64,000 bases of DNA, from assembly GCA_021810605.1 (NCBI GenBank), contig JAJZIL010000002.1, positions 1,109 through 65,108 on the forward strand. The letters are read 5' to 3'. The notes beneath the pieces are model-generated. The model saw only the letters and a list, made by a program, of their open reading frames with translations, had not been told where the DNA came from and ran no database searches. This stretch comes from a bacterium (GTDB lineage Bacteria; Patescibacteriota; Dojkabacteria; JAKAPS01; JAJZLI01). The translations under genes and the position numbers were made by a program. The stretch's first letter is position 1, and each line of letters begins with the position of its first letter. Of this stretch, positions 20,079 through 62,777 are shown in pieces.

Positions 20079-20123
20079 ATATTTCATAAATTATTAATCT
20101 TTAAATACTAGAATATAATTATT

Positions 20124-20532
20124 GGAGATGGTGGGAATCGAACCCACATCCATGAAGATAAATATATATATAGGGTTACAAGTTTATCAGTTTTAATTTT
20201 GAATTTATCATTTTACTACTGATAAAATAATGATAATTCTAATATTAGTCCAGTTTTGTTTTCATGTTAAAATCTAATATTAAAAATTTTAACACTAATC
20301 TTGTTTTGTTTAAGCAAGATAAAATTTACAAGAATTATTTTATCTCACTCTAAGTTTATTATGCTAAACTTAGATTGTATTGTGGAGTAAAAGTTGATTT
20401 TAAATTTCCAACAAATTCTGACACTTTACTTTTTATATTATTTACATTTATTATTTTAATAATTTTTAAAAGATTATTAAACTTTACTTGCCATATATAC
20501 ATCGATTTTTCTTGTCAAAACCGGTCATCCCC
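20124..20532 (-). ncRNA. ssrA: tmRNA (SsrA), about 409 nt
   Basis: Minus-strand 5' end GGGGAUGACCGGUUUUGACAAG matches the conserved tmRNA start (GGGG-UGA..GGUUUCGAC). The 3' end GUGGGUUCGAUUCCCACCAUCUCCA forms a canonical T-arm plus an acceptor strand complementary to GGGGAUG, and CCA is not encoded. There is an internal tag-like ORF ...YNLSLA-UAA-UAA at about 20356-20409. Confidence 0.85.
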
Positions 20533-49719: not shown

Positions 49720-51642
49720 TTATATATCTATTTCTGCTGATTTAGCATTTAATTGTATAAATTTTTTTCTAGGAGGAACTTCTGTTCCCATTAACATTTC
49801 AAAAGTTTTATCTGCTTCTTCAAAGTCATCTATATTGATTTGCTTTAGTACCCTTGTTGCAGGATTCATTGTAGTATCCCATAATTGTTCAGAATTCATT
49901 TCTCCCAACCCTTTATACCTTTGTATAGAATTAATTTTGATATTTTCTGATTCTAATCTCTTTGTTATCTTCTCTAAATCACTATCATCTAATGCCCAAA
50001 TTTCATCTTTTGTATTTGATGTAGTGAGTTTATATAAAGGAGGTTGTGCTATATATACATATCCTTTTTCTAGAACTTCTTTGAGATGTCTATATAGGAA
50101 AGTTAATATTAATGTAGCAATATGCTCCCCATCTACATCTGCATCTGCCATTATTATAATTTTTTTGTATCTTATTTTATCTATATTGAGAGTATCTGCT
50201 ATTCCTGTACCTAATGCTATTACAAAATCTTTTAATTTATCATTTTCTAATACTTTATCAATTCGATATTTTTCACTATTTATAGGTTTTCCTGTTAGAG
50301 GTAATATTGCCTGAGTCATTCTATCTCTAGCAGCCTTTGCACTTCCTCCTGCACTATCTCCTTCTACAATAAATATTTCACATCTTTCAGGATCTTTTTC
50401 ACTACAGTCAGATAACTTTCCAGGAAGAGCTCCACCTTCAAAAACTCCTTTTCTTATAACTGAATCTCTAGCAGCTTTTGCAGCCTTTCTTGCTTTTGCA
50501 GCAAGTAATACTTTATCCATAATATTCTTTGCATCTTTTGGATTTTCCTCTAGATATGTTTCTAATTCTTTTGCAACAATGTTTCTGGTGATTGTTTGAA
50601 TTTCAGAATTATTTAATTTCATTTTAGTCTGTCCCTCAAATTGTGGATTCTCAAGTTTTACAGATATGATAGCAGTAAGACCTTCTCTTACATCATCTCC
50701 TGTAAGTAAATCTTTAGTATCTTTTATCAATCCTATTTTTTTTGCATAATCATTAATTGTTTTTGTTAGAGCAGTTTTAAATCCAGTAATATGTGTTCCC
50801 CCTTCAGGATTATATATATTATTTGCAAAAGACATCATATTGTCTGAAATCTCAGTTGTATATTGCATTGCTACTTCTATCATAGAATTATCAACTTCTT
50901 TTTTTAAATATATAATATTAGTAATATTATGTTTATCTTTATCGAGAGTTCTTACATATGATTTTGCTCCACCTTCAAAATATATATAGTATGGTTGAGA
51001 ATAATTAAGACTTCTCTCATCTTGAAAAGTGAAGAGTATATTTCCTGTTAGATAAGCTTGCTCTCTTACTCTTCTAAGTAGTTGTTTACTATTTATATCT
51101 ATATCAGTAAATATACTTGTATCTGGTTTAAATGTTTGAATAGTTCCATGATCTTTGGCAATTGTATTTTCTTGTTTTTTTACTTGATATTGAGGAATAC
51201 CTTTATTGTATTCTTGTATATATCCTTCTCCTCCTATAAATGATTGAGTAGACATATATTCACTTAAAGCATTAGTACAAGAGACCCCTACTCCATGTAA
51301 TCCTCCTGATATTTTATATCCACCCTTGGATCCAAATTTCCCTCCAGCATGCAATACTGTCATAACAGTTTCTAAAGAAGATTTTTTTGTTTGTGGATGA
51401 ATTGCAACAGGAATTCCTCTTCCATTATCCTCAACTTGAATAGTTCCATCTTTAAAGATTCGTATATCTATTTTATTACAAAATCCAGCTAATGCTTCAT
51501 CAATAGCATTATCAATTACTTCATATATTATTTGATATACTCCATTTATATTTGTAGATCCAATATACATTGAAGGTCTTTTTCTAACAGCTTCTAGTCC
51601 TTCTAATACTACAATTGAATTTTCGTCATATGCCTCATCCAT
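49720..51642 (-). CDS. gyrB: DNA gyrase subunit B
   Basis: GHKL ATPase N-terminus, a Toprim EGDSAGGS motif, and PLKGK-like LTGKPIN. 640 aa. Confidence 0.9.
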
Positions 51643-51645
51643 AAT

Positions 51646-52245
51646 TTATATATTTAGTAATATATCTATTAATAAAATTTTCTCTGAAATATTATTTTGA
51701 ATTGATTTTTGAATCTCATTTAACTTTTTTAATTTATCTGTAACGTTATTAATACTCTTACAGTTTCTTATTATATACGAAATTATATTTATAATAAAGT
51801 CTTCTGTGTTATTTACTTCTTCTATATATTTTAATCTATTTTCAATATCCATATTAATAAAGGATTTTATATCATAAATCTGTACTTCACTTCTATCTTT
51901 TACAAGTATACATCTAGAATTAATAGTATCAAGAAGTTTAGTATGATTATTAATTGATATTATTATAGTAGTGTCACTATTAGTTTCTTCTAGTATCTTT
52001 AGCATTGAGTTTTGGGCTTCTATTGTAATAGATTCTATTTTTATAAGTATTACTCTTTGAGTATTTGAAAATGATTTATATTTTAAATTATTTTTTATAT
52101 CATTAATATCTCTGATTTTTATATTTCCCTTAAATTTTAAAAAATCAGGATTATATTTAGAAGTATTTGTAATAAAACTTTTTGCAAAAGAATCTATATT
52201 ATTTTCTATATTAGATTCATATATATAACTTTGTGCCATGGACAA
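51646..52245 (-). CDS. holB: short DNA polymerase III delta'-like clamp-loader subunit
   Basis: AQNSMLKILEE resembles the delta'/gamma sensor region (AANALLKTLEEP). 199 aa, upstream of gyrB. Confidence 0.4.
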   Translation of the reverse strand: MSMAQSYIYESNIENNIDSFAKSFITNTSKYNPDFLKFKGNIKIRDINDIKNNLKYKSFSNTQRVILIKIESITIEAQNSMLKILEETNSDTTIIISINNHTKLLDTINSRCILVKDRSEVQIYDIKSFINMDIENRLKYIEEVNNTEDFIINIISYIIRNCKSINNVTDKLKKLNEIQKSIQNNISEKILLIDILLNI

Positions 52246-52287
52246 ATTCTATCATAATTTTTTAATCTTTAAAATTTTATTTTATTA

Positions 52288-54054
52288 GTGTATAAATTAT
52301 TTATGGATATTCTTGATATTTTAGTTTCAAAAGGAAAAATTAATCAACAGGTTGCAAATGATTTAAGAATTAAGTCTATTAAAGAGAGTAAAGATATTGA
52401 ATTTATTATTAATGAATCAAATGTTATTCCAGAAAATGATTTATTTGAAGCTAGGGGTATCCTTTATAATACACCTTTTAAAGACTTATCTACTATTACA
52501 AGTATTCCTAGAGATATATTTAATATATTTAATACTAGAGATTTAACAGAAAGGATTGTTCTTCCTTTTGATAAGACTGCAGAGGGGGCAATTATGCTTG
52601 CTATGCAGAATCCTTTGGATATACAACTTATTCAATATTTTGAAAATAAGTATAAAATAAAGATTGTCCCCTATCTAGCTATTCCAGAACAAATACTTAC
52701 TATTATTAATGCTCAGTCATCTCAACAAATTGAAAGTAATGTTATAGATGATGTAGAGGCAGCAAATACTGATTTTAATATTGAAGATGTTACTGGGAAT
52801 GTAGAGAACGTATCAGGTGATATTGATGGTTCTATAAAAAATGCTCCTATTGTCAAAATTGTGAATACAGTATTGGAATATGCTGCTAAAAATGGTGCTT
52901 CTGATCTACATATTGAACCTACAAAAAAAATATTAAGATTTAGGCTTAGAATTGATGGAGTTTTATATGAAAAATTATCAGTTCCATTGGCACTTGCTCC
53001 TGCAATAATCTCTCGTATAAAAATTCTTTCAAGACTTAAGATAGAAGAAAAAAGGCTTCCTCAAGATGGAAGATTTAATATAAAAGTAGGAAAAGAATAT
53101 ATAGATTTGAGAGTATCATCTCTTCCTACTGTTTATGGAGAGAAAATCGTTATTAGACTACTCAGAAAAGCTGAATCTATATCTGATATTAAAGATATAG
53201 GAATGCAAGGTAAAGCTTTTGAGGAATATAAGAATTCTCTGACTTTAACTAAAGGGATAATTCTTATTACAGGACCTACCGGTTCTGGAAAAACTCAAAC
53301 ATTAGCTACTTCCCTATCTTATGTTAATAAGCCAACTGTTAATATAATAACACTTGAAGATCCTGTTGAGATTGAGATTGATGGAGTTAATCAAGTTCAG
53401 GTAAACCCAGATGCTGGATTAGATTTTGCAACTGGACTACGTGCATTTTTAAGGCAGGATCCAAATATAATAATGGTAGGAGAAATAAGAGATGAAGAAA
53501 CTGCTAGACTTGCTACTCAAGCATCATTAACAGGACATCTAGTTTTATCTACAATACATACAACTTCTGCAGCAGGAGCTTTACCAAGGCTATTAGATAT
53601 GGGAATAGAGCCTTTTTTAATATCATCTACAATAGAATTGATAGTGGCTCAAAGATTAGTTAGAAAAATTTGTAATCATTGTCAAGAAGATTATATTCCA
53701 GAAGAGAGTGTATTGGATAATATAAAGGAAATTTTTAAGGATAGTAGTATAGATATAGCAAAATATGTTAAATCTTCACAAGAAAAAAACAATGTGATAT
53801 ATTTATCTAGAGGTAAAGGTTGCAATTATTGTTCTAATACTGGGTATTTAGGTAGAACTGGTATATTTGAAGTCTTAGTTGTTACTAATGATATTAGAAA
53901 ACTTATATTAGAAAAGGATTCGAGTGATAGCATAAATACAGTTGCAGTAAAGAATGGAATGATAACTTTAGTTCAAGATGGATACCTTAAAGTTATAGAT
54001 AAAATAACAACAATAGAAGAAGTTTATAGAGTTGCAAAGGAAAGTGTTGAATAA
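52288..54054 (+). CDS. pilB: type IV pilus assembly ATPase PilB (GspE family)
   Basis: Walker A GPTGSGKT, an Asp box, Walker B, and a tetracysteine motif CNHC...CNYC. Confidence 0.9.
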   Translation: MYKLFMDILDILVSKGKINQQVANDLRIKSIKESKDIEFIINESNVIPENDLFEARGILYNTPFKDLSTITSIPRDIFNIFNTRDLTERIVLPFDKTAEGAIMLAMQNPLDIQLIQYFENKYKIKIVPYLAIPEQILTIINAQSSQQIESNVIDDVEAANTDFNIEDVTGNVENVSGDIDGSIKNAPIVKIVNTVLEYAAKNGASDLHIEPTKKILRFRLRIDGVLYEKLSVPLALAPAIISRIKILSRLKIEEKRLPQDGRFNIKVGKEYIDLRVSSLPTVYGEKIVIRLLRKAESISDIKDIGMQGKAFEEYKNSLTLTKGIILITGPTGSGKTQTLATSLSYVNKPTVNIITLEDPVEIEIDGVNQVQVNPDAGLDFATGLRAFLRQDPNIIMVGEIRDEETARLATQASLTGHLVLSTIHTTSAAGALPRLLDMGIEPFLISSTIELIVAQRLVRKICNHCQEDYIPEESVLDNIKEIFKDSSIDIAKYVKSSQEKNNVIYLSRGKGCNYCSNTGYLGRTGIFEVLVVTNDIRKLILEKDSSDSINTVAVKNGMITLVQDGYLKVIDKITTIEEVYRVAKESVE

Positions 54055-54057
54055 TAT

Positions 54058-55122
54058 ATGGATATAGAAGATTTACTAAAATATACAATACAAAAAAATG
54101 CATCAGATCTTCATCTTGCAGTAGGATATCCCCCGATGGTTAGGGTTGATGGTGAGCTTGAAATTGTTAATAATGTTGCAATTGACGAGGATAGTATGAA
54201 GATACTTATAGATCCTGTAATGTCAGATTCTCAGAAAGAATTTTTAGAGGTGAATAAAGAAACAGACTTTTCATATGAGTATAAGCCTACTCAAGATAGA
54301 TTTAGAGTTAATGTTTTTCATGAAAAAAGTCATCTTGCAGGAGCATTTAGACTTATTCCTAAAGATATAAGAACCTTTGAAGAGTTATTTTTACCAGATG
54401 TAATGCATAAATTTACATCTTTACCTCAAGGGTTGGTTCTTTTGACTGGACCAACTGGACATGGTAAATCTACTACTCTAGCTGCAATGCTACAGGAAGT
54501 TAATATAACATATCCAAAACATATAATTACAATTGAAGATCCTATTGAGTATGTATATCCAAAAGCAAAGTCTCTTGTTGATCAAAGAGAGATAGGAGAA
54601 GATACTCATTCTTGGGATATATCTTTAAGAAGTGTACTTCGAGAAGATCCTGATGTTGTACTTATAGGAGAAATGAGAGATTTTGAAACTATATCTGCAG
54701 CAATAACAATTGCAGAGACAGGACATTTAGTATTTGCAACATTACATACTAATAGTGCTGCTCAAACAATTGATAGGATTGTTGATGTATTTCCAGATTT
54801 ACAACAAGCTCAGATAAGGAGTCAATTAGCTGATATTATTGAAGGTGTAATTGCACAAAGATTAGTTCCTACAATTGGTGGTGGAAGAAGAGCAGTATTA
54901 GAGGTATTATTAGCATCTTCAGCAGTAAGGAATATAGTAAGAGAAGGAAAAACATATCAATTAGATAGTATTATTCAGACAAGTGGCGATATAGGAATGA
55001 TTTCTTTAGAAAGATCTTTAGTATCATTAGTAAGAGAAGGAAAAATTACTATAGATGATGCACAAAAGTATTCTTCTAAGCCTGATGAAGTATTAAGATT
55101 ATTTAAAGGAAGAAGCGAATGA
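54058..55122 (+). CDS. pilT: twitching-motility retraction ATPase PilT
   Basis: Walker A GPTGHGKST, and AIRNIVREGK, the PilT signature AIRNLIRE. Confidence 0.9.
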   Translation: MDIEDLLKYTIQKNASDLHLAVGYPPMVRVDGELEIVNNVAIDEDSMKILIDPVMSDSQKEFLEVNKETDFSYEYKPTQDRFRVNVFHEKSHLAGAFRLIPKDIRTFEELFLPDVMHKFTSLPQGLVLLTGPTGHGKSTTLAAMLQEVNITYPKHIITIEDPIEYVYPKAKSLVDQREIGEDTHSWDISLRSVLREDPDVVLIGEMRDFETISAAITIAETGHLVFATLHTNSAAQTIDRIVDVFPDLQQAQIRSQLADIIEGVIAQRLVPTIGGGRRAVLEVLLASSAVRNIVREGKTYQLDSIIQTSGDIGMISLERSLVSLVREGKITIDDAQKYSSKPDEVLRLFKGRSE

Positions 55123-56339
55123 GTGATTTTGTTTATACTGCAGCTGATAAAGATGGGGCTATAACTCAAGGAAAGATGGATGCTCCTGATAAAGATACTG
55201 CTGCAAAGTTAATTATAGATCAAGGATTAACACCTCTAAAAATAAAAGATAGTCAATCAGTTTCAATTTCAAATTTAGGTGATTTAAATTCTATAAATAT
55301 TGGTAAAGTTCCTATAAAGGATAGAGTAATATTTTTTAGGCAATTATCAGTACTTATAACTTCTGGAATTCCAATAACTGAGGCTTTAGATATAACATAC
55401 AATCAGGTTACTAATAAAGGTTTAAAAAAAATACTTAGTAGTGTAGAAAAATCAGTTGAATCAGGGAAGAATCTTTCTGATTCATTTGAACCATATACAA
55501 AGCTTTTTACAAATATGCAGATTCAACTTTTAAGAACTGCAGAGGCTTCTGGATCTTTAGATTATATATTAAATAGAATGGCTGATGACATAGAGAATCA
55601 GAGTAATCTTATATCAAAGCTTAGAGGTGCTATGATATATCCTATACTTGTTATTATAGTCTCAATAGTTGTTATAGGATTAGTAGTGACTCAAATGGTT
55701 CCTCCAATGAAAAATCTCTATGAGAGTTTTAATGCTACTCTTCCATGGCCTACTCTGTTTATAATTGATGTGAGTAATTTTGTAACAAATTATTGGATTA
55801 TAGGTTTAATAATAGTAATAATACTAGCTATAGGATTTTATTTTTATACAAGATCAAATAGTGGTAAAAAAACAATTGATAGATTAGTATTAAAAATCCC
55901 TGTCTTTGGAGGATTAATTCAGAAAATTCAGATTATAAATTTTGGAAAAACTTTTGTTTTACTTACGAAGGCTGGAGTTCCTCTAGTTCAAGGTTTAAAT
56001 CTTATATCAAACTCTTTATCTAATACATTATTTAGAAATACAGTTAAGGAATTAGCAGATGAAGTTGAAAAAGGAAGATCATTATCAGATGTTATGTCCA
56101 AATATGATATTTTTCCTCCATTAATTTGGAGAATGATTGGTATTGGAGAGCAAACTGGAAATATGGAAGAAGTTGTTTCTAAGGTTCTTGATTATTATGA
56201 AGATGAAGTTCAGAATTTAATTGATAATCTATCAAAAATTCTTGAACCTGTTATTACAATATTTTTAGGTGTTATAGTAGGATTCATTGGAGTATCTGTC
56301 TACTTACCAATTTATACTTTAGGTAGTGTAATTAAATGA
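55119..56339 (+). CDS. pilC: type IV pilus platform protein PilC (GspF family)
   Basis: Two GspF repeats with 3 TM segments, 406 aa. Confidence 0.85.
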   Translation: MSDFVYTAADKDGAITQGKMDAPDKDTAAKLIIDQGLTPLKIKDSQSVSISNLGDLNSINIGKVPIKDRVIFFRQLSVLITSGIPITEALDITYNQVTNKGLKKILSSVEKSVESGKNLSDSFEPYTKLFTNMQIQLLRTAEASGSLDYILNRMADDIENQSNLISKLRGAMIYPILVIIVSIVVIGLVVTQMVPPMKNLYESFNATLPWPTLFIIDVSNFVTNYWIIGLIIVIILAIGFYFYTRSNSGKKTIDRLVLKIPVFGGLIQKIQIINFGKTFVLLTKAGVPLVQGLNLISNSLSNTLFRNTVKELADEVEKGRSLSDVMSKYDIFPPLIWRMIGIGEQTGNMEEVVSKVLDYYEDEVQNLIDNLSKILEPVITIFLGVIVGFIGVSVYLPIYTLGSVIK

Positions 56340-56404
56340 TATTATTGACAAAAATTACATATATTGTACACTATATATAAATTAATTTTATATTAAAAAA
56401 AATT

Positions 56405-57088
56405 ATGAAAGGTATTGAAAAAGAGAATAAAAAAGGTTTTACTCTTGTTGAACTTTTAATAGTTATGGCTATTATAGGTATCTTGATAGCAATAGCTATT
56501 ATTGGATTAGGTTCAGCACAAGCAACTGCTAGAAATGAATCTAGACAAACTGCTGTAAAAGGTTTATCAGGGTTAATAGAAACATATTATGGTGACTCTG
56601 GAGGTACTTATCCTAGTAATGTGGGTATAAATTTAAGTACCACAGCTTCAGGATATGCAGCAGGGTATGTACAATTTGAATCTCCATTAGATGGTACATA
56701 TTTTACTACTGGAACAAATTTATGTAAGAATATAGATGCTCCTTTAAAGTTAAATAATGGAACTTTTGATTCAGCTGACTGTTCATCTAAAGTTTCTTTT
56801 GCAGTATCGTCAGGTAGTACTATAAATGGAGCTACTACTACTGATACTAATTCTGAAACTTATTACTTCTATATACCATTTACATCATCAACTCCATCTG
56901 CAGGAGGTGCTGCTACTGTAACTGTTGGTGCAACATCAGGAAGTCCTGTTACAGGTTATATTATTGGTGCTTGTTTAGAAAATAGTGGTATTTTTGCTTA
57001 TTCTTCAAATGGATCAAATGCTCCATTTACTACTAATGCTAATTCTATAAATGCAGATAGTGGTTCAGTGAAAATTACTTGTGGATAA
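56405..57088 (+). CDS. pilA: type IVa major pilin, copy 1
   Basis: Prepilin leader MKGIEKENKKG|FTLVELLIVMAIIGIL with G-1, F+1, E+5. Two Cys pairs; the protein ends ...KITCG. Confidence 0.85.
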   Translation: MKGIEKENKKGFTLVELLIVMAIIGILIAIAIIGLGSAQATARNESRQTAVKGLSGLIETYYGDSGGTYPSNVGINLSTTASGYAAGYVQFESPLDGTYFTTGTNLCKNIDAPLKLNNGTFDSADCSSKVSFAVSSGSTINGATTTDTNSETYYFYIPFTSSTPSAGGAATVTVGATSGSPVTGYIIGACLENSGIFAYSSNGSNAPFTTNANSINADSGSVKITCG

Positions 57089-57898
57089 ATGTATTTAGTA
57101 TTTGATATATTTGTATTTATATTTGGTGCTGTTGTTGGGAGTTTTTTGAATGCAACAGTATATAGAGTAAAAAATAAAAAAGATTTTATAATATCAAGGT
57201 CTGAGTGTGAAAGTTGTAAACATAAACTTTCACCATTAGACCTTGTTCCAGTTTTAAGTTATATTTTTCTTCAAGGAAAATGTAGATATTGTAAAGAAAA
57301 AATCTCCTCTATTAATTTTTTTTTTGAGATTATATCAGGTATAGTATTTCTACTCTATTTTAATTTTTTATCGTTTAATTATTTAATTAATAATTCTGCT
57401 TTTGTTTATATAAATATATTATTTTATCTTTTTATAATCTGTATATTTTTATATATTGGATTATATGATTTTTTCTATTATGAGATATCAGATAAGCTTA
57501 TTTTTTACTCCTCTATTTTAGTCTTTATTTATTTCCTAATATCTTATTATTTTGGATATATATCCTTATATATTATTATAAATCATATAGTTACAGGAAT
57601 AATCGTTGCTGGATTATTCTTACTTATAATTCTTATTACCAAAGGAGAAGGTATGGGTGGTGGAGATATGAAATTAGTATTTCTAATGGGTCTTATATTA
57701 GGTTATCCTGCAATATTATATGTATTATTTGTATCCTTTGTATTAGGTGCTGTTATAGGATTAATATTAATACTTATTAAAAATAAAACTTTAAAATCAT
57801 CTATACCTTTTGCCCCTTTCTTGTCTTCCTCTATAATCTTGTATATAATTTTTAGTGTATATTTATTAAGATTAATATCTTATCTTTATATTAGATAA
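57089..57898 (+). CDS. pilD: prepilin peptidase/N-methyltransferase PilD (A24 family)
   Basis: N-terminal tetracysteine CESC...CRYC, a polytopic membrane profile, and a GGGD-type catalytic region (GMGGGDMK). Confidence 0.85.
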   Translation: MYLVFDIFVFIFGAVVGSFLNATVYRVKNKKDFIISRSECESCKHKLSPLDLVPVLSYIFLQGKCRYCKEKISSINFFFEIISGIVFLLYFNFLSFNYLINNSAFVYINILFYLFIICIFLYIGLYDFFYYEISDKLIFYSSILVFIYFLISYYFGYISLYIIINHIVTGIIVAGLFLLIILITKGEGMGGGDMKLVFLMGLILGYPAILYVLFVSFVLGAVIGLILILIKNKTLKSSIPFAPFLSSSIILYIIFSVYLLRLISYLYIR

Positions 57899-57903
57899 AT
57901 AAG

Positions 57904-58572
57904 ATGAAAAAAGGTTTTACTCTTGTTGAACTTTTAATAGTTATGGCTATTATAGGTATCTTGATAGCAATAGCTATTATTGGATTAGGTTCAGCACAAG
58001 CAACTGCTAGAAATGAATCTAGACAAACTGCTGTAAAAGGTTTATCAGGGTTAATAGAAACATATTATGGTGACTCTGGAGGTACTTATCCTAGTAATGT
58101 GGGTATAAATTTGAGTACTACAGCTCCAGGATATGCAGCAGGGTATGTACAATTTGAATCTCCATTAGATGGTACATATTTTACTACTGGAACAAATTTA
58201 TGTAAGAATATAGATGCTCCTTTAGAGTTAAATAATGGAACTTTTAATTCAGCTGACTGTTCATCTCAAGTTTCTTTTGAAGTATCTAAATTTGGTCAGG
58301 TAGCTAATATAAGTACAGGTACTACTGATACTAATTCTGAAACTTATTATTTCTATATACCATTTGTATCATATTCTCCAGGTGGAAATGATTATGCTAT
58401 TCCAACTGTTGGTACACTACCAGGAAGTCCTGTTACAGGTTATATTATTGGTGCTTGTTTAGAAAATAGTGGTATTTTTGCTTATTCTTCAAATGGATCA
58501 AATGCTCCATTTACTATTAATGCTAATTCTATACATGTAGACATTAGAGAAGTACAAATTACTTGTGGATAA
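57904..58572 (+). CDS. pilA: type IVa major pilin, copy 2 (mosaic paralogue of copy 1)
   Basis: Leader MKKG|FTLVELL. About 400 nt of the 5' region and about 150 nt of the 3' region are nearly identical to copy 1, with a divergent central cassette. Confidence 0.85.
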   Translation: MKKGFTLVELLIVMAIIGILIAIAIIGLGSAQATARNESRQTAVKGLSGLIETYYGDSGGTYPSNVGINLSTTAPGYAAGYVQFESPLDGTYFTTGTNLCKNIDAPLELNNGTFNSADCSSQVSFEVSKFGQVANISTGTTDTNSETYYFYIPFVSYSPGGNDYAIPTVGTLPGSPVTGYIIGACLENSGIFAYSSNGSNAPFTINANSIHVDIREVQITCG

Positions 58573-58751
58573 ATATGTTTATCATTTGTATTAGGTACTG
58601 TTATAGGATTAATATTAATACTTATTAAAAATAAAACTTTAAAATCATCTATACCTTTTGCCCCTTTCTTGTCTTCCTCTATAATATTATATATAATTTT
58701 TAGTGTATATTTATTAAGATTAATATCTTATCTTTATATTAGATAAATAAG
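58573..58751 (+). pseudogene. pilD: pilD remnant (first about 10 nt fused to last about 175 nt)
   Basis: 58575-58751 is near-identical to the pilD 3' end at 57730-57900, but the interior is missing. Its frame gives only MFIICIRYCYRININTY*. Confidence 0.8.
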
Positions 58752-59558
58752 ATGAATAAAGGTTTTACCCTTGTTGAATTATTAGTAGTTATTGCTATAT
58801 CTATTTTCCTTATTGGGATGGCTTTAGTTGGAACTCAAGGCACTCAGGCACAAGTAACTCTTAATGCTGCAGCTGCAAGTTTTATATCTAATGTAAATTT
58901 GATGAAAAATGATGCAATTGCAGGAGATGTAAGTTTAGGTTCTGACTATGTTTCTCCTTCAACTAATTGGGTTTATGGTTTTTCTATTTTTCCAGAAGCA
59001 TTATCTTCAACTCCATCATCAAATCCAGAATTATGTCAAAGTACTGTATCAAATGAATGTGCAGCTGGATATTATACTGCGATCATAGAAGAGAATGTTC
59101 AAAGTGCTTCTTATGGATATGGAAACTATTCTCCTCCATTTAATAATTCATTAAATTCTGTATATAATTTAAATGATTATGCATATCCTGAAAGTTTAAT
59201 AAATCATAATATTTATATAAGAAAGATATTTTCTTTAACACAAACTCAAGTATCTTATAATAGGAATGCATATAATTGGGTTTATTATAACTCATTACCT
59301 GCTGGAGTTAGTATATCTTATCCCAATACAGTTGTTTCAAATGAATATTATTTCCCTGTATTTCAAGAGTTAACAGGATATATATATCTTTATAACTTAA
59401 ATACAGGTAATTTAGTAACAAGTTCTAGTAATACATCTTTATCAGTAGTATTTAATTTATCTTATGAAGGTTATACTATTCCTATAACTTTTTATGATTT
59501 ATATAATAGTAGTAATGAGTCTAATTCTTTTTCTGAAGGAATAATTACAAATGGATAA
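58752..59558 (+). CDS. minor (pseudo)pilin with prepilin leader
   Basis: MNKG|FTLVELLVVIAI class III signal peptide. Confidence 0.75.
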   Translation: MNKGFTLVELLVVIAISIFLIGMALVGTQGTQAQVTLNAAAASFISNVNLMKNDAIAGDVSLGSDYVSPSTNWVYGFSIFPEALSSTPSSNPELCQSTVSNECAAGYYTAIIEENVQSASYGYGNYSPPFNNSLNSVYNLNDYAYPESLINHNIYIRKIFSLTQTQVSYNRNAYNWVYYNSLPAGVSISYPNTVVSNEYYFPVFQELTGYIYLYNLNTGNLVTSSSNTSLSVVFNLSYEGYTIPITFYDLYNSSNESNSFSEGIITNG

Positions 59559-60189
59559 CAAAAAAGGTTTTACTTTAATAGAAATTCTTATAACAATAGT
59601 TTTATTAGGATTTTTACTTATTGCTGTACTTGAGGCAGAAGCTTTATCAATAGATAATAATTATTATAATGTATATAGGTTATATTCAAGAGAAATTCTT
59701 TCATATGAGCTTTCGTATGCTCATATTTGGGCTAATGAAGGAAATATTAACTGGAATAGTCCTACTCCAGAGCAGATTTCTTGTCCAGGTTTTGGAGATT
59801 CTTCTGTTATATCAGGAGGCTCAAATTTGGGTGATTGTTTATCTATAAACGATGTAGGACAATTTTTAAATATAGCTACTGTAGGAACATATAGTATTCC
59901 TTTGCCTAAAGATATTGGTATATTCCTATATATTACACCTACTACTACGCATACACAAGCAGAAGTGTATGCTTTTGTCCTCTGGTCTTTTTCAACTAAG
60001 GGAGTAAAATCAAATCTTGAAGAGCAAGATAGTGAAATTTTTGGATCTAGCAGTACAACTTCACCATATTACTATATAAAAAGTACCTTAGGATCTACTT
60101 CTACATTTCTTAATTATTTAAATGGAGAAAATACTCTTCAATTTAATAATGCAATTTCTGGAAGTGATATTATTACTAAATTAAATTAA
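59551..60189 (+). CDS. minor (pseudo)pilin with prepilin leader
   Basis: MDNKKG|FTLIEILITIVLLG. Confidence 0.75.
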   Translation: MDNKKGFTLIEILITIVLLGFLLIAVLEAEALSIDNNYYNVYRLYSREILSYELSYAHIWANEGNINWNSPTPEQISCPGFGDSSVISGGSNLGDCLSINDVGQFLNIATVGTYSIPLPKDIGIFLYITPTTTHTQAEVYAFVLWSFSTKGVKSNLEEQDSEIFGSSSTTSPYYYIKSTLGSTSTFLNYLNGENTLQFNNAISGSDIITKLN

Positions 60190-60191
60190 TT

Positions 60192-60860
60192 ATGTTAAAT
60201 AAAATTTCAAAATTAAATAATATAGGATTTACTTTAGTAGAAACTCTTATTGCTATGGCAATATTCACATTTATTGCAGTTCTAATTGCAGAATCATTTG
60301 CAAATACTATTTTTTATACTAGTAACCTATCTTCAGAGATAAAGATTGAAAATCAAGTACAAAGTTCATTGGAATATATAAAAAGAGAAATGAGATTATC
60401 TGCATATACTACATTTAATGATCAAGGTACAGTAACACCACCTAATACTTGTGATTATTTAGGGCAACAATTATATTATGGGAATTCTCCAATTTGTAAT
60501 TCTCCTTCATCAGGAGGATCATTTAATTTATATAATGCTTCAGATCAATTAATTGGAAGTATTACTCTTCAATCAGGTATATTAGATTTTACTAATTCAT
60601 CAATTTCTGGATCTCCAATATCAATTCAATTAAATTCTAATGGGGTTAATATAGAGAATATTAGTTTTTTTTATGATAATTATGATTTTTCAGGGACTTC
60701 ATATAGTGGAAAAAGTTATATATTTCCTTATATAAATATTTTTATTGAAGGTTGTCAGAAAAGTTATTATAATTACCTATTTAATAGTTCTTCTAATACT
60801 ACTCCTGCATGTGTTCAACTTATAACAACTGCTACAAATGAGAATTTTGTATATCATTAA
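60192..60860 (+). CDS. minor (pseudo)pilin with prepilin leader
   Basis: ...NNIG|FTLVETLIAMAIFTF. Confidence 0.7.
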   Translation: MLNKISKLNNIGFTLVETLIAMAIFTFIAVLIAESFANTIFYTSNLSSEIKIENQVQSSLEYIKREMRLSAYTTFNDQGTVTPPNTCDYLGQQLYYGNSPICNSPSSGGSFNLYNASDQLIGSITLQSGILDFTNSSISGSPISIQLNSNGVNIENISFFYDNYDFSGTSYSGKSYIFPYINIFIEGCQKSYYNYLFNSSSNTTPACVQLITTATNENFVYH

Positions 60861-60987
60861 TTAGTATTGAATTTTTATATTATATTGTATATATTAGATA
60901 TAATGAAATTTTTAAAAAATAGGAAAATATTACTCAAAGTTATAGTTTTTTCTATATTTTTTGTGTTTGTCGGAATTTTTTTATATA
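60856..60987. repeat. right copy of the 132-bp inverted repeat (pairs with 45027-45158)
   Basis: See the left copy. It covers the promoter and 5' end of the ORF at 60867. Confidence 0.9.
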
Positions 60988-62777
60988 AAAATTCTTTAGT
61001 GCATGCAAGTATATCTTCTATTGATAATAATTTTTTTACTACAGAAGCTAGTTGTTATCCAAATGATTCAGGTTCATATAGTTGTGGTAGTTCAGGAACT
61101 AGTAGTAGTTCAGGAACTAGTAGTAGTTCAAGTACTAGTTGTACTCAAACTAGTCCAACTAATTCAACATCAAGTCCATATAATTGTGGGAGTGCAGGAA
61201 CTAGTGGTGGAGGAACTACTTGTTATCCAACTGATTCAGGATCAAACCCATATGGTAATTGTGGGAGTTCAATAACACCAAAGACTCAGACTGTGAATGT
61301 GCAAGAAGATTATTGGACACAATCAAAACCTACAGGGTCTGCCACAATTGAAAATACTGACACTCTTAGTGGTGTATTACCTACTACAAATGTTTATCAT
61401 GTAATAACTACCGGTGTAGTAGTATTATTTTCAGGAAGTTATACTTATACTTGTAATGCTCCTGCACAGACTAAATCTTACAATTCTACAACAGAAGTTA
61501 CTACTGTAACTAATTATTCTTGTTCTACTCCAGCTCCTAAGAATTGTACAGACGGAGCTTCAGTTACAGAAACAGCAAATTTATCATCAGATTATCCTGG
61601 AGAGACATTAACATATTCTGATACGTTATGTTCATATACTGCTTCTGTAAATACTATTGTAAATCATGAGTATTATAAATATCAGATAAGTGTAGGTTCA
61701 CCTACATCAACATCTCCTTTTTATGTAGAGGAACATTCTCCTATTCCTAGCTCAGCTAGTACTTATGGTCAGATTGCTTATCAAGTTACCGTATCATGTG
61801 TACCACCATCATCGACCAGTGGGTTATCAAGTTATTACTCTTACTGTACTCCTGGATATCAAGATATAGCTGAATCTATTCCTGTAAAGTGGTTGAGTTT
61901 TTCTTATTCATCTGATATTTCAGAGAATAATTCTATTTGTAATACAGATGTATATTCCCCGAGTGATCCATGCACAGTCTATTTTGCAGTAACACCTTTT
62001 ACTTCCGGAGAAAATTTACCTTCTTCATACTCTTCTTATACAACACCTATTAATGTATATTTTTCTAATTCAGATGTTTTTTCTGGTAGTTTTGGGGCAA
62101 CATCATATTTTGGAAATTATACTGCTATAAATAATCCTTCATCAATAGAGGCTACTACAAATAATGTTAATTTAATTATTTTTTCTTCTTGGATACAAGC
62201 ACAAAATGGAAATACTTATTCTCCTAATGGTTATAATATTAATACACCTCCAAACTCTTCTACTATTGAAGGAAGTGCTTTTTTATTAGGTGGTTTAATA
62301 GAATATAAAACTTCAATATTAAATTTTTTAAATCCATCTCCTCAGCAAAAAACATTTTCTGTTAATAAATTAAATTTAATATCTAGTAGTAGTGGTACTC
62401 CTGTGTATGATTTTAATTTTTTTGCAACCCTATATTGTCAATTTAGTTCAAATTGTGAAAATAGTTCAGGAAATACATATTTGTATAGAAATGGAGTCTT
62501 AAATATTAACGGTATTCAGTCATACTCTCCTTCTACTTGTAATAGTAGTGGTGGTGCCAATTGGTATTATTATTCTTCTTCACAAACCTTTTCAAGTTCT
62601 TCTTTTTGTCCTTCAAATGATATAGTTTTAGTAAATGGAGATGTGGATATAACAAATAATATTACTGGATCTACTAATCTTCTAATCATATCAAATGGTA
62701 GTATTACTGTTTCTGGGAATGTTACCAATATAGATGCATTTTTGATGGCTATGTATCAAATTAAAATATTAAATTGA
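60867..62777 (+). CDS. large Ser/Thr/Cys-rich secreted protein, candidate pilus-associated adhesin
   Basis: Signal peptide shared with the 44743-45147 gene, a low-complexity GTSSSSGTSSSSSTSC tract, and many paired Cys. It sits at the distal end of the minor-pilin block. Confidence 0.55.
   Translation: MNFYIILYILDIMKFLKNRKILLKVIVFSIFFVFVGIFLYKNSLVHASISSIDNNFFTTEASCYPNDSGSYSCGSSGTSSSSGTSSSSSTSCTQTSPTNSTSSPYNCGSAGTSGGGTTCYPTDSGSNPYGNCGSSITPKTQTVNVQEDYWTQSKPTGSATIENTDTLSGVLPTTNVYHVITTGVVVLFSGSYTYTCNAPAQTKSYNSTTEVTTVTNYSCSTPAPKNCTDGASVTETANLSSDYPGETLTYSDTLCSYTASVNTIVNHEYYKYQISVGSPTSTSPFYVEEHSPIPSSASTYGQIAYQVTVSCVPPSSTSGLSSYYSYCTPGYQDIAESIPVKWLSFSYSSDISENNSICNTDVYSPSDPCTVYFAVTPFTSGENLPSSYSSYTTPINVYFSNSDVFSGSFGATSYFGNYTAINNPSSIEATTNNVNLIIFSSWIQAQNGNTYSPNGYNINTPPNSSTIEGSAFLLGGLIEYKTSILNFLNPSPQQKTFSVNKLNLISSSSGTPVYDFNFFATLYCQFSSNCENSSGNTYLYRNGVLNINGIQSYSPSTCNSSGGANWYYYSSSQTFSSSSFCPSNDIVLVNGDVDITNNITGSTNLLIISNGSITVSGNVTNIDAFLMAMYQIKILN

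Follow-up and report, generated by a model that had tools for sequence, protein, structure and literature searches.

The stretch of DNA considered here, a 64,000-nucleotide (64-kb) window of contig JAJZIL010000002.1 from an ultrasmall bacterium of the Dojkabacteria (Patescibacteria), is AT-rich (GC content 26%) and contains a type IV pilus locus in which the gene for the presumed major pilin, pilA, is followed by a second, slightly shorter copy. According to the listing of open reading frames (ORFs) and Pfam searches of the 64-kb window, the operon reads pilB-pilT-pilC-pilA1-pilD-pilA2-ΔpilD and continues into three minor pilin genes. The closest named relatives of its pilin come from metagenome-assembled genomes (MAGs) labeled 'Patescibacteria group bacterium'. 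pilA2 belongs to a derived tandem duplication which varies among strains; we consider it probable that this duplication arose by unequal recombination, is recurrently lost through recombination between its repeats, and provides an alternative pilus surface. A preliminary description of this DNA had proposed a tandem pilA-pilD duplication with mosaic pilins and a decayed second pilD. Alignment, Pfam and ORF data bear this out, and the coordinates and reading frames given there for pilA1, pilD and pilA2 agree with the ORF listing, as do the leaders MKGIEKENKKG/F (copy 1) and MKKG/F (copy 2), where the slash precedes residue +1. Its further proposal of cassette-type variation fared less well and is taken up below.

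Both pilA genes are complete, adjacent and co-oriented within one pilus locus, and therefore qualify as tandem major-pilin paralogues. The N-terminal methylation motif (N_methyl, PF07963; cutoff 21.2 bits) was found in all five pilin-like genes of the locus, and both pilA products read KKG/FTLVELL, a basic leader ending in Gly followed by Phe at +1 and Glu at +5, which is the type IV pilin motif. Nucleotide alignment showed that the copies are a mosaic of conserved and variable segments. There are no differences over nucleotides (nt) 25-230 of pilA1 (0/206) and seven over nt 231-400 (7/170). Patch 1 (nt 401-436) then differs at 17 of 36 positions and has 6 gap columns, patch 2 (nt 475-545) differs at 21 of 71, and patch 3 (nt 641-668), with NADSGSVK in one copy and HVDIREVQ in the other, at 10 of 28. 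The segments separating the patches have one difference each (1/38 at nt 437-474 and 1/95 at nt 546-640), and the last 16 nt (669-684) are identical. The near-identical 3' block, previously put at about 150 nt, is thus only ~95-110 nt long before it gives way to the third patch, which had been overlooked. Altogether, 48 of the 57 substitutions are concentrated in 135 of 660 aligned nt (binomial p ~1e-24). The framework has 9 differences in 525 nt, the three patches differ by 30-47%, and the two proteins are 85% identical.

The intact pilD encodes both the N-terminal and the catalytic membrane domain of a peptidase A24 enzyme in one ORF. Downstream of pilA2, positions 58574-58751 match 57726-57903 of the pilD region at 172 of 178 nt (96.6%). 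This second copy retains only the equivalent of amino acids (aa) 215-269, 55 codons' worth by tblastn, too little for a peptidase A24 protein, and no ORF of at least 40 aa and no in-frame start codon was found within 58573-58751. ΔpilD is a pseudogene remnant from which ~630 nt are missing. It had been described as the first few nt of pilD fused to its last ~175 nt; the tail is indeed present, while the left fusion point cannot be assigned to the nucleotide, since ~12 nt after the pilA2 stop codon could come from either end of pilD.

The same tail sequence precedes both pilA2 and the first minor pilin gene (minor1), as noted earlier, and the two upstream regions share an identical 24 nt plus ATGAA. 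A role as promoter and ribosome-binding site (RBS) had been suggested. Both tail copies contain matches resembling -35 and -10 elements, as does the intergenic region before pilA1 (TTGACA-16-TACACT at 56345-56372, a resemblance to the consensus that is no better than chance). Across the region there were 70 such matches, versus 87.8 expected from shuffled sequence, and in this AT-rich DNA the promoter and terminator scan gave only matches at or below chance. There is a simpler reason for the similarity, judging by the sequence: pilA2 may have inherited the 5' end of minor1 through the duplication junction. It is probably from minor-pilin-type signals that pilA2 is expressed.

The direction of change can be read from related species. 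In six related loci (L018 and L020-L024; 47-58% PilA identity) the order is always pilB-pilT-pilC-pilA-pilD-minor1-minor2-minor3-large ORF, with the pilB-pilT-pilC genes upstream of the pilins as in the window; five of the six continue into a response regulator. pilA and pilD are single in all six, and the duplicated arrangement is therefore derived. A scan of species-representative genomes found no genome of this species, the best match being 58% identical.

The point of joining is marked by the start of pilA2, ATGAAAAAAGG, which may be compared with that of the minor pilin, ATGAATAAAGG; the two differ by one base in the leader (ATGAAaAAAGG versus ATGAAtAAAGG). Together with the sequence before it, pilA2 follows minor1 and its upstream region up to ATGAA, and it follows pilA1 from AAAAGG onward (ATGAA/AAAAGG). 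The first 47 nt of minor1 are 87% identical to the 5' end of pilA2, and pilA and minor1 share an N-terminal coding block of ~45 nt (86-87% identity). Because pilA2 switches from minor1-like to pilA1 sequence at AAAAGG, the junction lies at the left edge of this shared block. The proposed course of events begins with unequal recombination between the N-terminal blocks of pilA and minor1 on two chromosome copies, which would yield pilA1-pilD-[hybrid start + pilA]-pilD-minor1. In this way pilA2 would have acquired the upstream region of the minor pilin and its short leader; recombination at the N-terminal blocks would explain why MKKG is the minor pilin leader MNKG with one base changed. A subsequent deletion of ~630 nt would have stripped most of the redundant second pilD. 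The direct repeats that remain (the pilD tails of 178 nt, the pilin N-terminal blocks and the pilA 5' regions of 206-376 nt) would serve as substrates for RecA-type recombination, which may repeatedly delete the second copy and probably also holds the two pilin frameworks near-identical by gene conversion.

Further evidence comes from independent contigs of the same species, whose flanks are 99.6-100% identical to the window. Three of these (L010-L012) begin at nt 90 of pilA1, cross pilD with its tail and end within pilA2 at nt 122-209, and are 100% identical to the window. Another, L182, runs from nt 69 of pilA2 through the remnant into the minor pilins, and L183-L185 do likewise from further inside pilA2; over the pilA2 body, the remnant and minor1 all four are 100% identical to the window. 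The distance to the nearest copy-specific base is exactly 141 nt, which is the k of the assembly, at the starts of L010-L012 and L182 and also at the L011 end (pilA2 nt 144); such unitigs are what a genome with this repeat should give. Both halves were recovered from a single sample, JGI 3300033990 (L005 and L183). Two novel junctions were found, each at 100% identity: the pilD tail with CTTG leading into ATGAAAAAAGG, in at least five assemblies, and GGATAA leading into ATATGTTTATC, in at least eight. The junction of the duplicated form referred to as J2 consists of GGATAAATATGTTTATC, then ATTA, then minor1. The pilD deletion junction is identical on L014, L015, L016, L099 and L182-L185.

This structural variation occurs on a near-clonal background. 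Over the 4889 nt of pilB-pilC, eight of nine sequences show 0-1 single-nucleotide polymorphism (SNP) and the ninth, L017, shows 6-7; no SNP was found among same-species contigs in the ~4.4 kb downstream of minor1. The pilD tails differ at 6/178 nt (p=2e-6) and the pilA frameworks at 9/525 (p=4e-6), against at most 7/4889 between strains. Because the paralogues differ far more than the strains do, the duplicated form is probably older than this clone. Screening strain variants for copy number, as had been proposed, revealed both duplicated and single-copy forms. Single-copy contigs fall into three kinds: J3, with full pilD, a CTTG-type tail and the normal minor1 start (L001, L004, L008 and L017); J4, with intact pilD and a remnant-type ATTA tail before minor1 (L186 and L187); and J5, with full pilD and a pilD-type tail, after which ATGAAAAAAGGTTTTACT leads directly into the body of minor1 (L002). 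J3 and J4 exclude each other as ancestral states, and at least one must have arisen when a crossover within the 178-nt tail repeat deleted pilA2 and ΔpilD. For J5 there are two possible origins, deletion by a crossover located in the N-terminal block and a short stretch of conversion by a pilA gene. Junctions of both the duplicated and the single-copy kind were found within one MAG (GCA_027425015.1; L010 and L187) and within one sample (ERZ27236985; L014 and L008). The single-copy forms are probably recent, recurrent losses of the second copy.

Selection appears to act differently on the two parts of the pilin. The 172 framework codons hold 3 synonymous and 6 nonsynonymous differences (synonymous divergence, dS, 0.025; nonsynonymous divergence, dN, 0.015) and the 47 patch codons 8.2 and 39.8 (dS 0.25, dN 0.55). 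In patch 2, ~20 nonsynonymous differences and no unambiguous synonymous one were counted, a pattern which points to positive selection in place. Patches 1 and 3 contain four clear synonymous differences in 11 conserved codons, and overall 4/22 conserved codons in the patches differ synonymously versus 3/166 in the framework (p=0.004). On these counts the sequences point to a longer history for the patches than for the framework, the framework having been homogenized by gene conversion or the patches imported. Comparison with an 87%-identical lineage (L098) gives a similar picture: in the framework the two copies, here A1 and A2, are 5-10x closer to each other than to L098, and in the patches all are equally distant. 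Two SNPs, at 231 and 237, are common to pilA2 and the A1-type allele of L017 and were considered as signs of recombination; L098 has G at 231, so simple ancestry suffices. Within the population, changes in the patches are new nonsynonymous point substitutions and not block swaps. The A2 variants K129A, V133A and N162I are all nonsynonymous and all lie in patches 1-2, with 0 SNPs in the 4889-nt flank (p=2.5e-7).

The AlphaFold2 model of the pilA1 product (predicted local distance difference test, pLDDT, 77; predicted template modeling score, pTM, 0.71) has the lollipop shape of a type IV pilin, with a helix at residues 14-63 and a beta-rich head of 12 strands. The patches are placed in loops and hairpins of this predicted head, patch 1 being a low-confidence loop. 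A Foldseek search of the PDB with the head of the model gave no significant match (best E-value 0.97), and the head fold of this pilin family appears to be uncharacterized. We infer that the two pilins share a polymerization helix and scaffold and differ in three loop or hairpin patches under diversifying selection, and that the locus supplies an alternative pilus surface with another receptor, phage or antigenic specificity.

We judge a different source for the second copy to be unlikely: an A2-type pilA, perhaps beside a defective pilD, may have been captured from a diverged strain by unequal recombination after DNA uptake. The paralogues have diverged by 1.7-3.4% in framework and tail and by 30-47% in the patches, far more than the strains (at most 0.14%), and A2 is the outlier in patch 2, with 15 differences per 71 nt between A1 and L098, 21 between A1 and A2, and 31 between A2 and L098. 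However, no A2-type gene followed by an intact pilD was seen among the contigs examined, and 5.8 billion proteins contained no closer donor of the A2 patches, the next matches after the species' own alleles being at most 65% identical. Moreover, the nearly exclusive nonsynonymous change in patch 2 fits selection in place.

It is distinctly unlikely that pilA2 is simply the fixed, specialized product of an old duplication that has been subfunctionalized, its patches formed by ordinary substitution with no present recombination. Pilin paralogues in tandem are frequent: two other Patescibacteria loci, L027 (Saccharibacteria) and L028 (Roizmanbacteria), have neighboring pilin genes, and tandem pilA1/pilA2 pairs have been reported for Legionella pneumophila (PMC13170364) and the cyanobacterium Synechocystis (PMC8546353). 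The same two patch sets, furthermore, recur in every sample. Against ordinary divergence stand its extreme unevenness (0/206 nt beside 47%, and a dS 10x higher in the patches than in the framework) and the L098 comparison, in which the A1-A2 distance equals the distance to L098 only in the patches. The presence or absence of the second copy and the recombinant junctions in a near-clonal background are likewise difficult to reconcile with a fixed, inactive pair.

In four contigs (L014, L015, L016 and L099) the pilA1 leader stands before a body of A2 type or a mosaic one, and in all four (4/4) the gene is followed by the pilD remnant and not by pilD. Two readings are available: an assembler walk through the 206-nt exact repeat, or a real deletion from one pilA 5' region to the other, at the cost of the one pilD that was seen in this DNA. 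On L016, the sequence of protein P0118 switches back and forth between A1-type and A2-type bases, one SNP at a time. Taking it as a true recombinant is unsafe, as such alternation is expected when an assembler merges the bubbles of two paralogues, and on its sequence P0118 is a probable assembler chimera. Public protein collections hold 'PilA' entries of 227-229 aa with the pilA1 leader and a pilA2-type body (P0118, P0119 and probably P0001 and P0120), and some database alleles of this pilA are probably artefacts of repeat collapse. It seems quite improbable that the repeats act as a high-frequency switch, in which recombination between the pilA 5' regions puts the A2 body behind the promoter and leader of pilA1 and removes the only intact pilD, although L014, L015, L016 and L099 are laid out in just this way. 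If they did, recombination in the tails would instead remove pilA2, and one clone would continuously yield A1-only cells, A1+A2 cells and peptidase-less, non-piliated A2 cells, so that in an obligate epibiont the repeats would drive both replacement of the pilin and phase variation.

In the pilE/pilS system of Neisseria, one expressed gene is accompanied by promoterless, 5'-truncated silent copies, and a G-quadruplex (G4) initiator lies near the expressed gene. A programmed antigenic variation of this cassette type, with pilA2 as the donor of segments converted non-reciprocally into an expressed pilA1, is very improbable here. The alternation of conserved and variable segments does resemble minicassettes, and the genes joining leader 1 to an A2-type body (L014, L015 and L099) and the alternating bases of P0118 might be taken for its products. 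Yet pilA2 is a complete gene with an ATG start codon, a leader and the G/F site, and it is the single extra copy: blastn and tblastn detected no further pilA-like fragments, and hence no 5'-truncated silent copies, in the 64 kb. No G4 motif (G3+N1-7, four times) was found on either strand of the window. The hybrid genes, each preceding the remnant, look more like a repeat path or a deletion than like conversion of pilA1, and the P0118 pattern is as expected from bubble merging; the mosaic contigs L016 and L099 may be either conversion products or assembler artefacts. A screen for alternative central cassettes, which had been suggested as a check, returned only two patch sets and point variants within the species. 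What survives of the earlier proposal is recombination at the locus, evident in copy number, three junctions, a recombinant tail and a hybrid 5' end. Other dedicated systems were also rejected. The copies are direct repeats, with no inverted repeats flanking them and only two weak and distant inverted pairs, which does not suit an invertible switch of the Moraxella tfpQ/tfpI-Piv type, and no recombinase was found in the locus, where every gene is a pilus gene by Pfam. A diversity-generating retroelement does not fit either, as the differing bases are not adenine-specific (A1: C9 G9 A7 T6; A2: A10 T9 C7 G5) and the differences include indels.

That the window contig merely stitches two strain alleles in tandem is scarcely credible, for although the 206-nt exact repeat breaks most short-read assemblies here and several samples clearly hold more than one form, concatenating alleles could not produce the two novel junctions, which recur on independent contigs.

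Several points nevertheless weigh against the proposed origin, recurrent loss and function of the second copy. The population evidence consists throughout of short-read metagenome contigs. Instead of being the scar of a deletion, the L002 hybrid may reflect a short gene conversion of minor1 by pilA1, and the CTTG-type single-copy form could be ancestral and not derived. Gene conversion of the framework is deduced from heterogeneity of dS over few sites; an almost equally good fit would be given by a recent duplication on which positive selection then acted very quickly, or by patches imported from elsewhere. In patch 2, the lack of any unambiguous synonymous change favors selection in place over import or old age. 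Finally, we infer rather than observe the expression of pilA2 and a functional difference between the pilins.

Table 1. Genes, repeats and variable patches of the pilus locus (positions in the window).
Feature	Position	Strand	Remarks
pilB	52288-54054	+	Assembly/retraction ATPase; Pfam T2SSE, E=2e-129
pilT	54058-55122	+	Assembly/retraction ATPase; Pfam T2SSE, E=5e-43
pilC	55119-56339	+	Platform protein; Pfam T2SSF, E=4e-57
Intergenic region upstream of pilA1	56340-56404	+	Unique to copy 1; single promoter-like match
pilA1	56405-57088	+	Complete prepilin, 227 aa, leader MKGIEKENKKG/F; Pfam N_methyl 34.3 bits
Direct repeat copy 1, shared pilA 5' region	56429-56804	+	Partner 57907-58282; first 206 nt identical, then 7 SNPs/170 nt
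pilA1 variable patch 1	56805-56840	+	aa 134-146; predicted loop, pLDDT <50 at residues 141-147
pilA1 variable patch 2	56879-56949	+	aa 159-182; strand end, loop, hairpin; 19.7 nonsynonymous vs 1.3 synonymous differences
pilA1 variable patch 3	57045-57072	+	aa 214-223; C-terminal hairpin just before last Cys
pilD	57089-57898	+	Prepilin peptidase/N-methyltransferase, 269 aa; PF06750 (A24_N_bact) E=9e-29, PF01478 (Peptidase_A24) E=3e-12
Direct repeat copy 1, pilD tail	57726-57903	+	Last 55 codons + stop + 5 nt; diagnostic bases T, G, C, G, C, G
pilA2	57904-58572	+	Complete prepilin, 222 aa, leader MKKG/F; Pfam N_methyl 30.8 bits
pilA2 variable patch 1	58283-58324	+	6 nt longer than pilA1 counterpart; K129A, V133A variants in other samples
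pilA2 variable patch 2	58363-58433	+	N162I variant in other samples
pilA2 variable patch 3	58529-58556	+	
ΔpilD remnant/spacer	58573-58751	+	179 nt, non-coding; tail repeat copy 2; diagnostic bases G, T, A, A, A, A
First minor pilin (minor1)	58752-59558	+	268 aa, leader MNKG/F; right-hand partner of duplication junction
Second and third minor pilins	59551-60189, 60192-60860	+	Pfam N_methyl; single copy; context by synteny

The coordinates of the locus are collected in Table 1. The exact PilA1 sequence was found on at least seven metagenome contigs and the exact PilD protein on 12, and a protein identical to PilA2 (P0117) is recorded on one NCBI contig. Outside the pilA-pilD unit, other variation was noted. 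At codons 156-158 of minor1 (59217-59225) the window reads ATA AGA AAG (I-R-K) and all other same-species contigs read TTA AAA AAT (L-K-N), giving three nonsynonymous changes in three adjacent codons within 5 kb that are otherwise SNP-free. This I-R-K allele (P0129) is recorded only from the source contig of the window and could reflect a multi-nucleotide mutation, a micro-conversion or a sequence error. L017 (GCA_027425055.1) carries five substitutions within 22 nt (52243-52264) just upstream of pilB, unlike all other strains, with one other SNP only in the next 4.6 kb; the cluster may be a regulatory-region variant. Contigs L005, L014 and L016, from three samples, all start at ~51539-51540, inside the 5' end of a minus-strand gyrB-like gene, which suggests a further repeat or strain-variable site that breaks assemblies. 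After the three minor pilins lies an ORF (60867-62777) of 636 aa (624 aa by other gene calls), rich in Ser, Thr and Gly with SSSGTSSS-type runs. It has no Pfam match and is kept in position in related species at 30-54% identity, and its product is a candidate pilus-tip or adhesin protein. Three MAGs of related species (DBS1-2.bin54, YP4.bin81 and clean1586; L019, L025 and L026) each carry an additional PilA-like gene of 36-45% identity (60% for L026, a partial match), on contigs separate from their main pilus operons (L020, L024 and L022), and no pilus-assembly gene of the window was detected beside these genes. Extra pilin paralogues emerge repeatedly in this clade. Elsewhere in the window, ARAGORN predicted a tmRNA gene of 410 nt on the minus strand (20123-20532) with an unusually long tag peptide, VNNIKSKVSEFVGNLKSTFTPQYNLSLA.

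Variation in this population, in which SNPs are otherwise nearly absent, has its only hotspot at the pilus locus, where a second major pilin is gained or lost and new amino-acid changes occur in three loops. In an uncultivated lineage, such variation picks out the pilus surface as a target of selection by hosts, phages or grazers, and the patch residues and junction sequences can be tracked in metagenomes. There is also a lesson for assembly: an exact repeat of 206 nt breaks or collapses short-read assemblies and yields chimeric 'alleles' in protein databases.

Set beside known systems, the locus shares with Neisseria pilE/pilS a conserved framework, short hypervariable segments and homologous recombination between pilin copies. 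It differs in having a single extra copy, with neither silent truncated copies in the 64 kb nor a G4 in the window, and in that the rearrangements are mostly deletions plus one possible short conversion, with no conversion repertoire observed. Like the tandem paralogues reported for Legionella and Synechocystis, it has two complete, adjacent and co-oriented prepilin genes with a shared N-terminal helix and divergent heads. It differs from these in that the duplicated unit is pilA plus pilD and has left a pilD pseudogene as a scar, that no synonymous site differs between the copies over 206 nt, and that near-clonal strains either have or lack the second copy. Competent bacteria can have hypervariable major pilin alleles that are exchanged horizontally; in Vibrio cholerae, for instance, PilA variants are reported to mediate kin-specific aggregation (bioRxiv 10.1101/354878). 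There too the pilin head is the most variable locus on a conserved background, and its variation is thought to alter surface specificity; such bacteria have alleles of one locus across strains, whereas here two variants stand in tandem in one genome. Members of the Patescibacteria in culture use type IV pili to attach to hosts, to move and to compete, and Nanosynbacter lyticus TM7x (Saccharibacteria) has two systems, T4P-1 and T4P-2, with pilA1 and pilA2 in different loci and forming two different filaments (PMC11623550). TM7x belongs to the same phylum-level group and has small 'lollipop' major pilins, and its pili mediate host binding and motility; in the present window, in contrast, the two pilins are 85%-identical neighbors that share an operon, and a single set of assembly genes is present. 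Neither tandem major-pilin paralogues nor hypervariable pilin heads are new, and no new mechanism is involved. Particular to this locus are the duplication of pilA-pilD with its pilD scar, the framework identical at synonymous sites over 206 nt and the probable repeated loss of the second copy in a near-clonal population. 'Cassette-type variation' overstates the evidence; the most fitting description is that of a second major-pilin gene, flanked by repeats, variable among strains and subject to diversifying selection.

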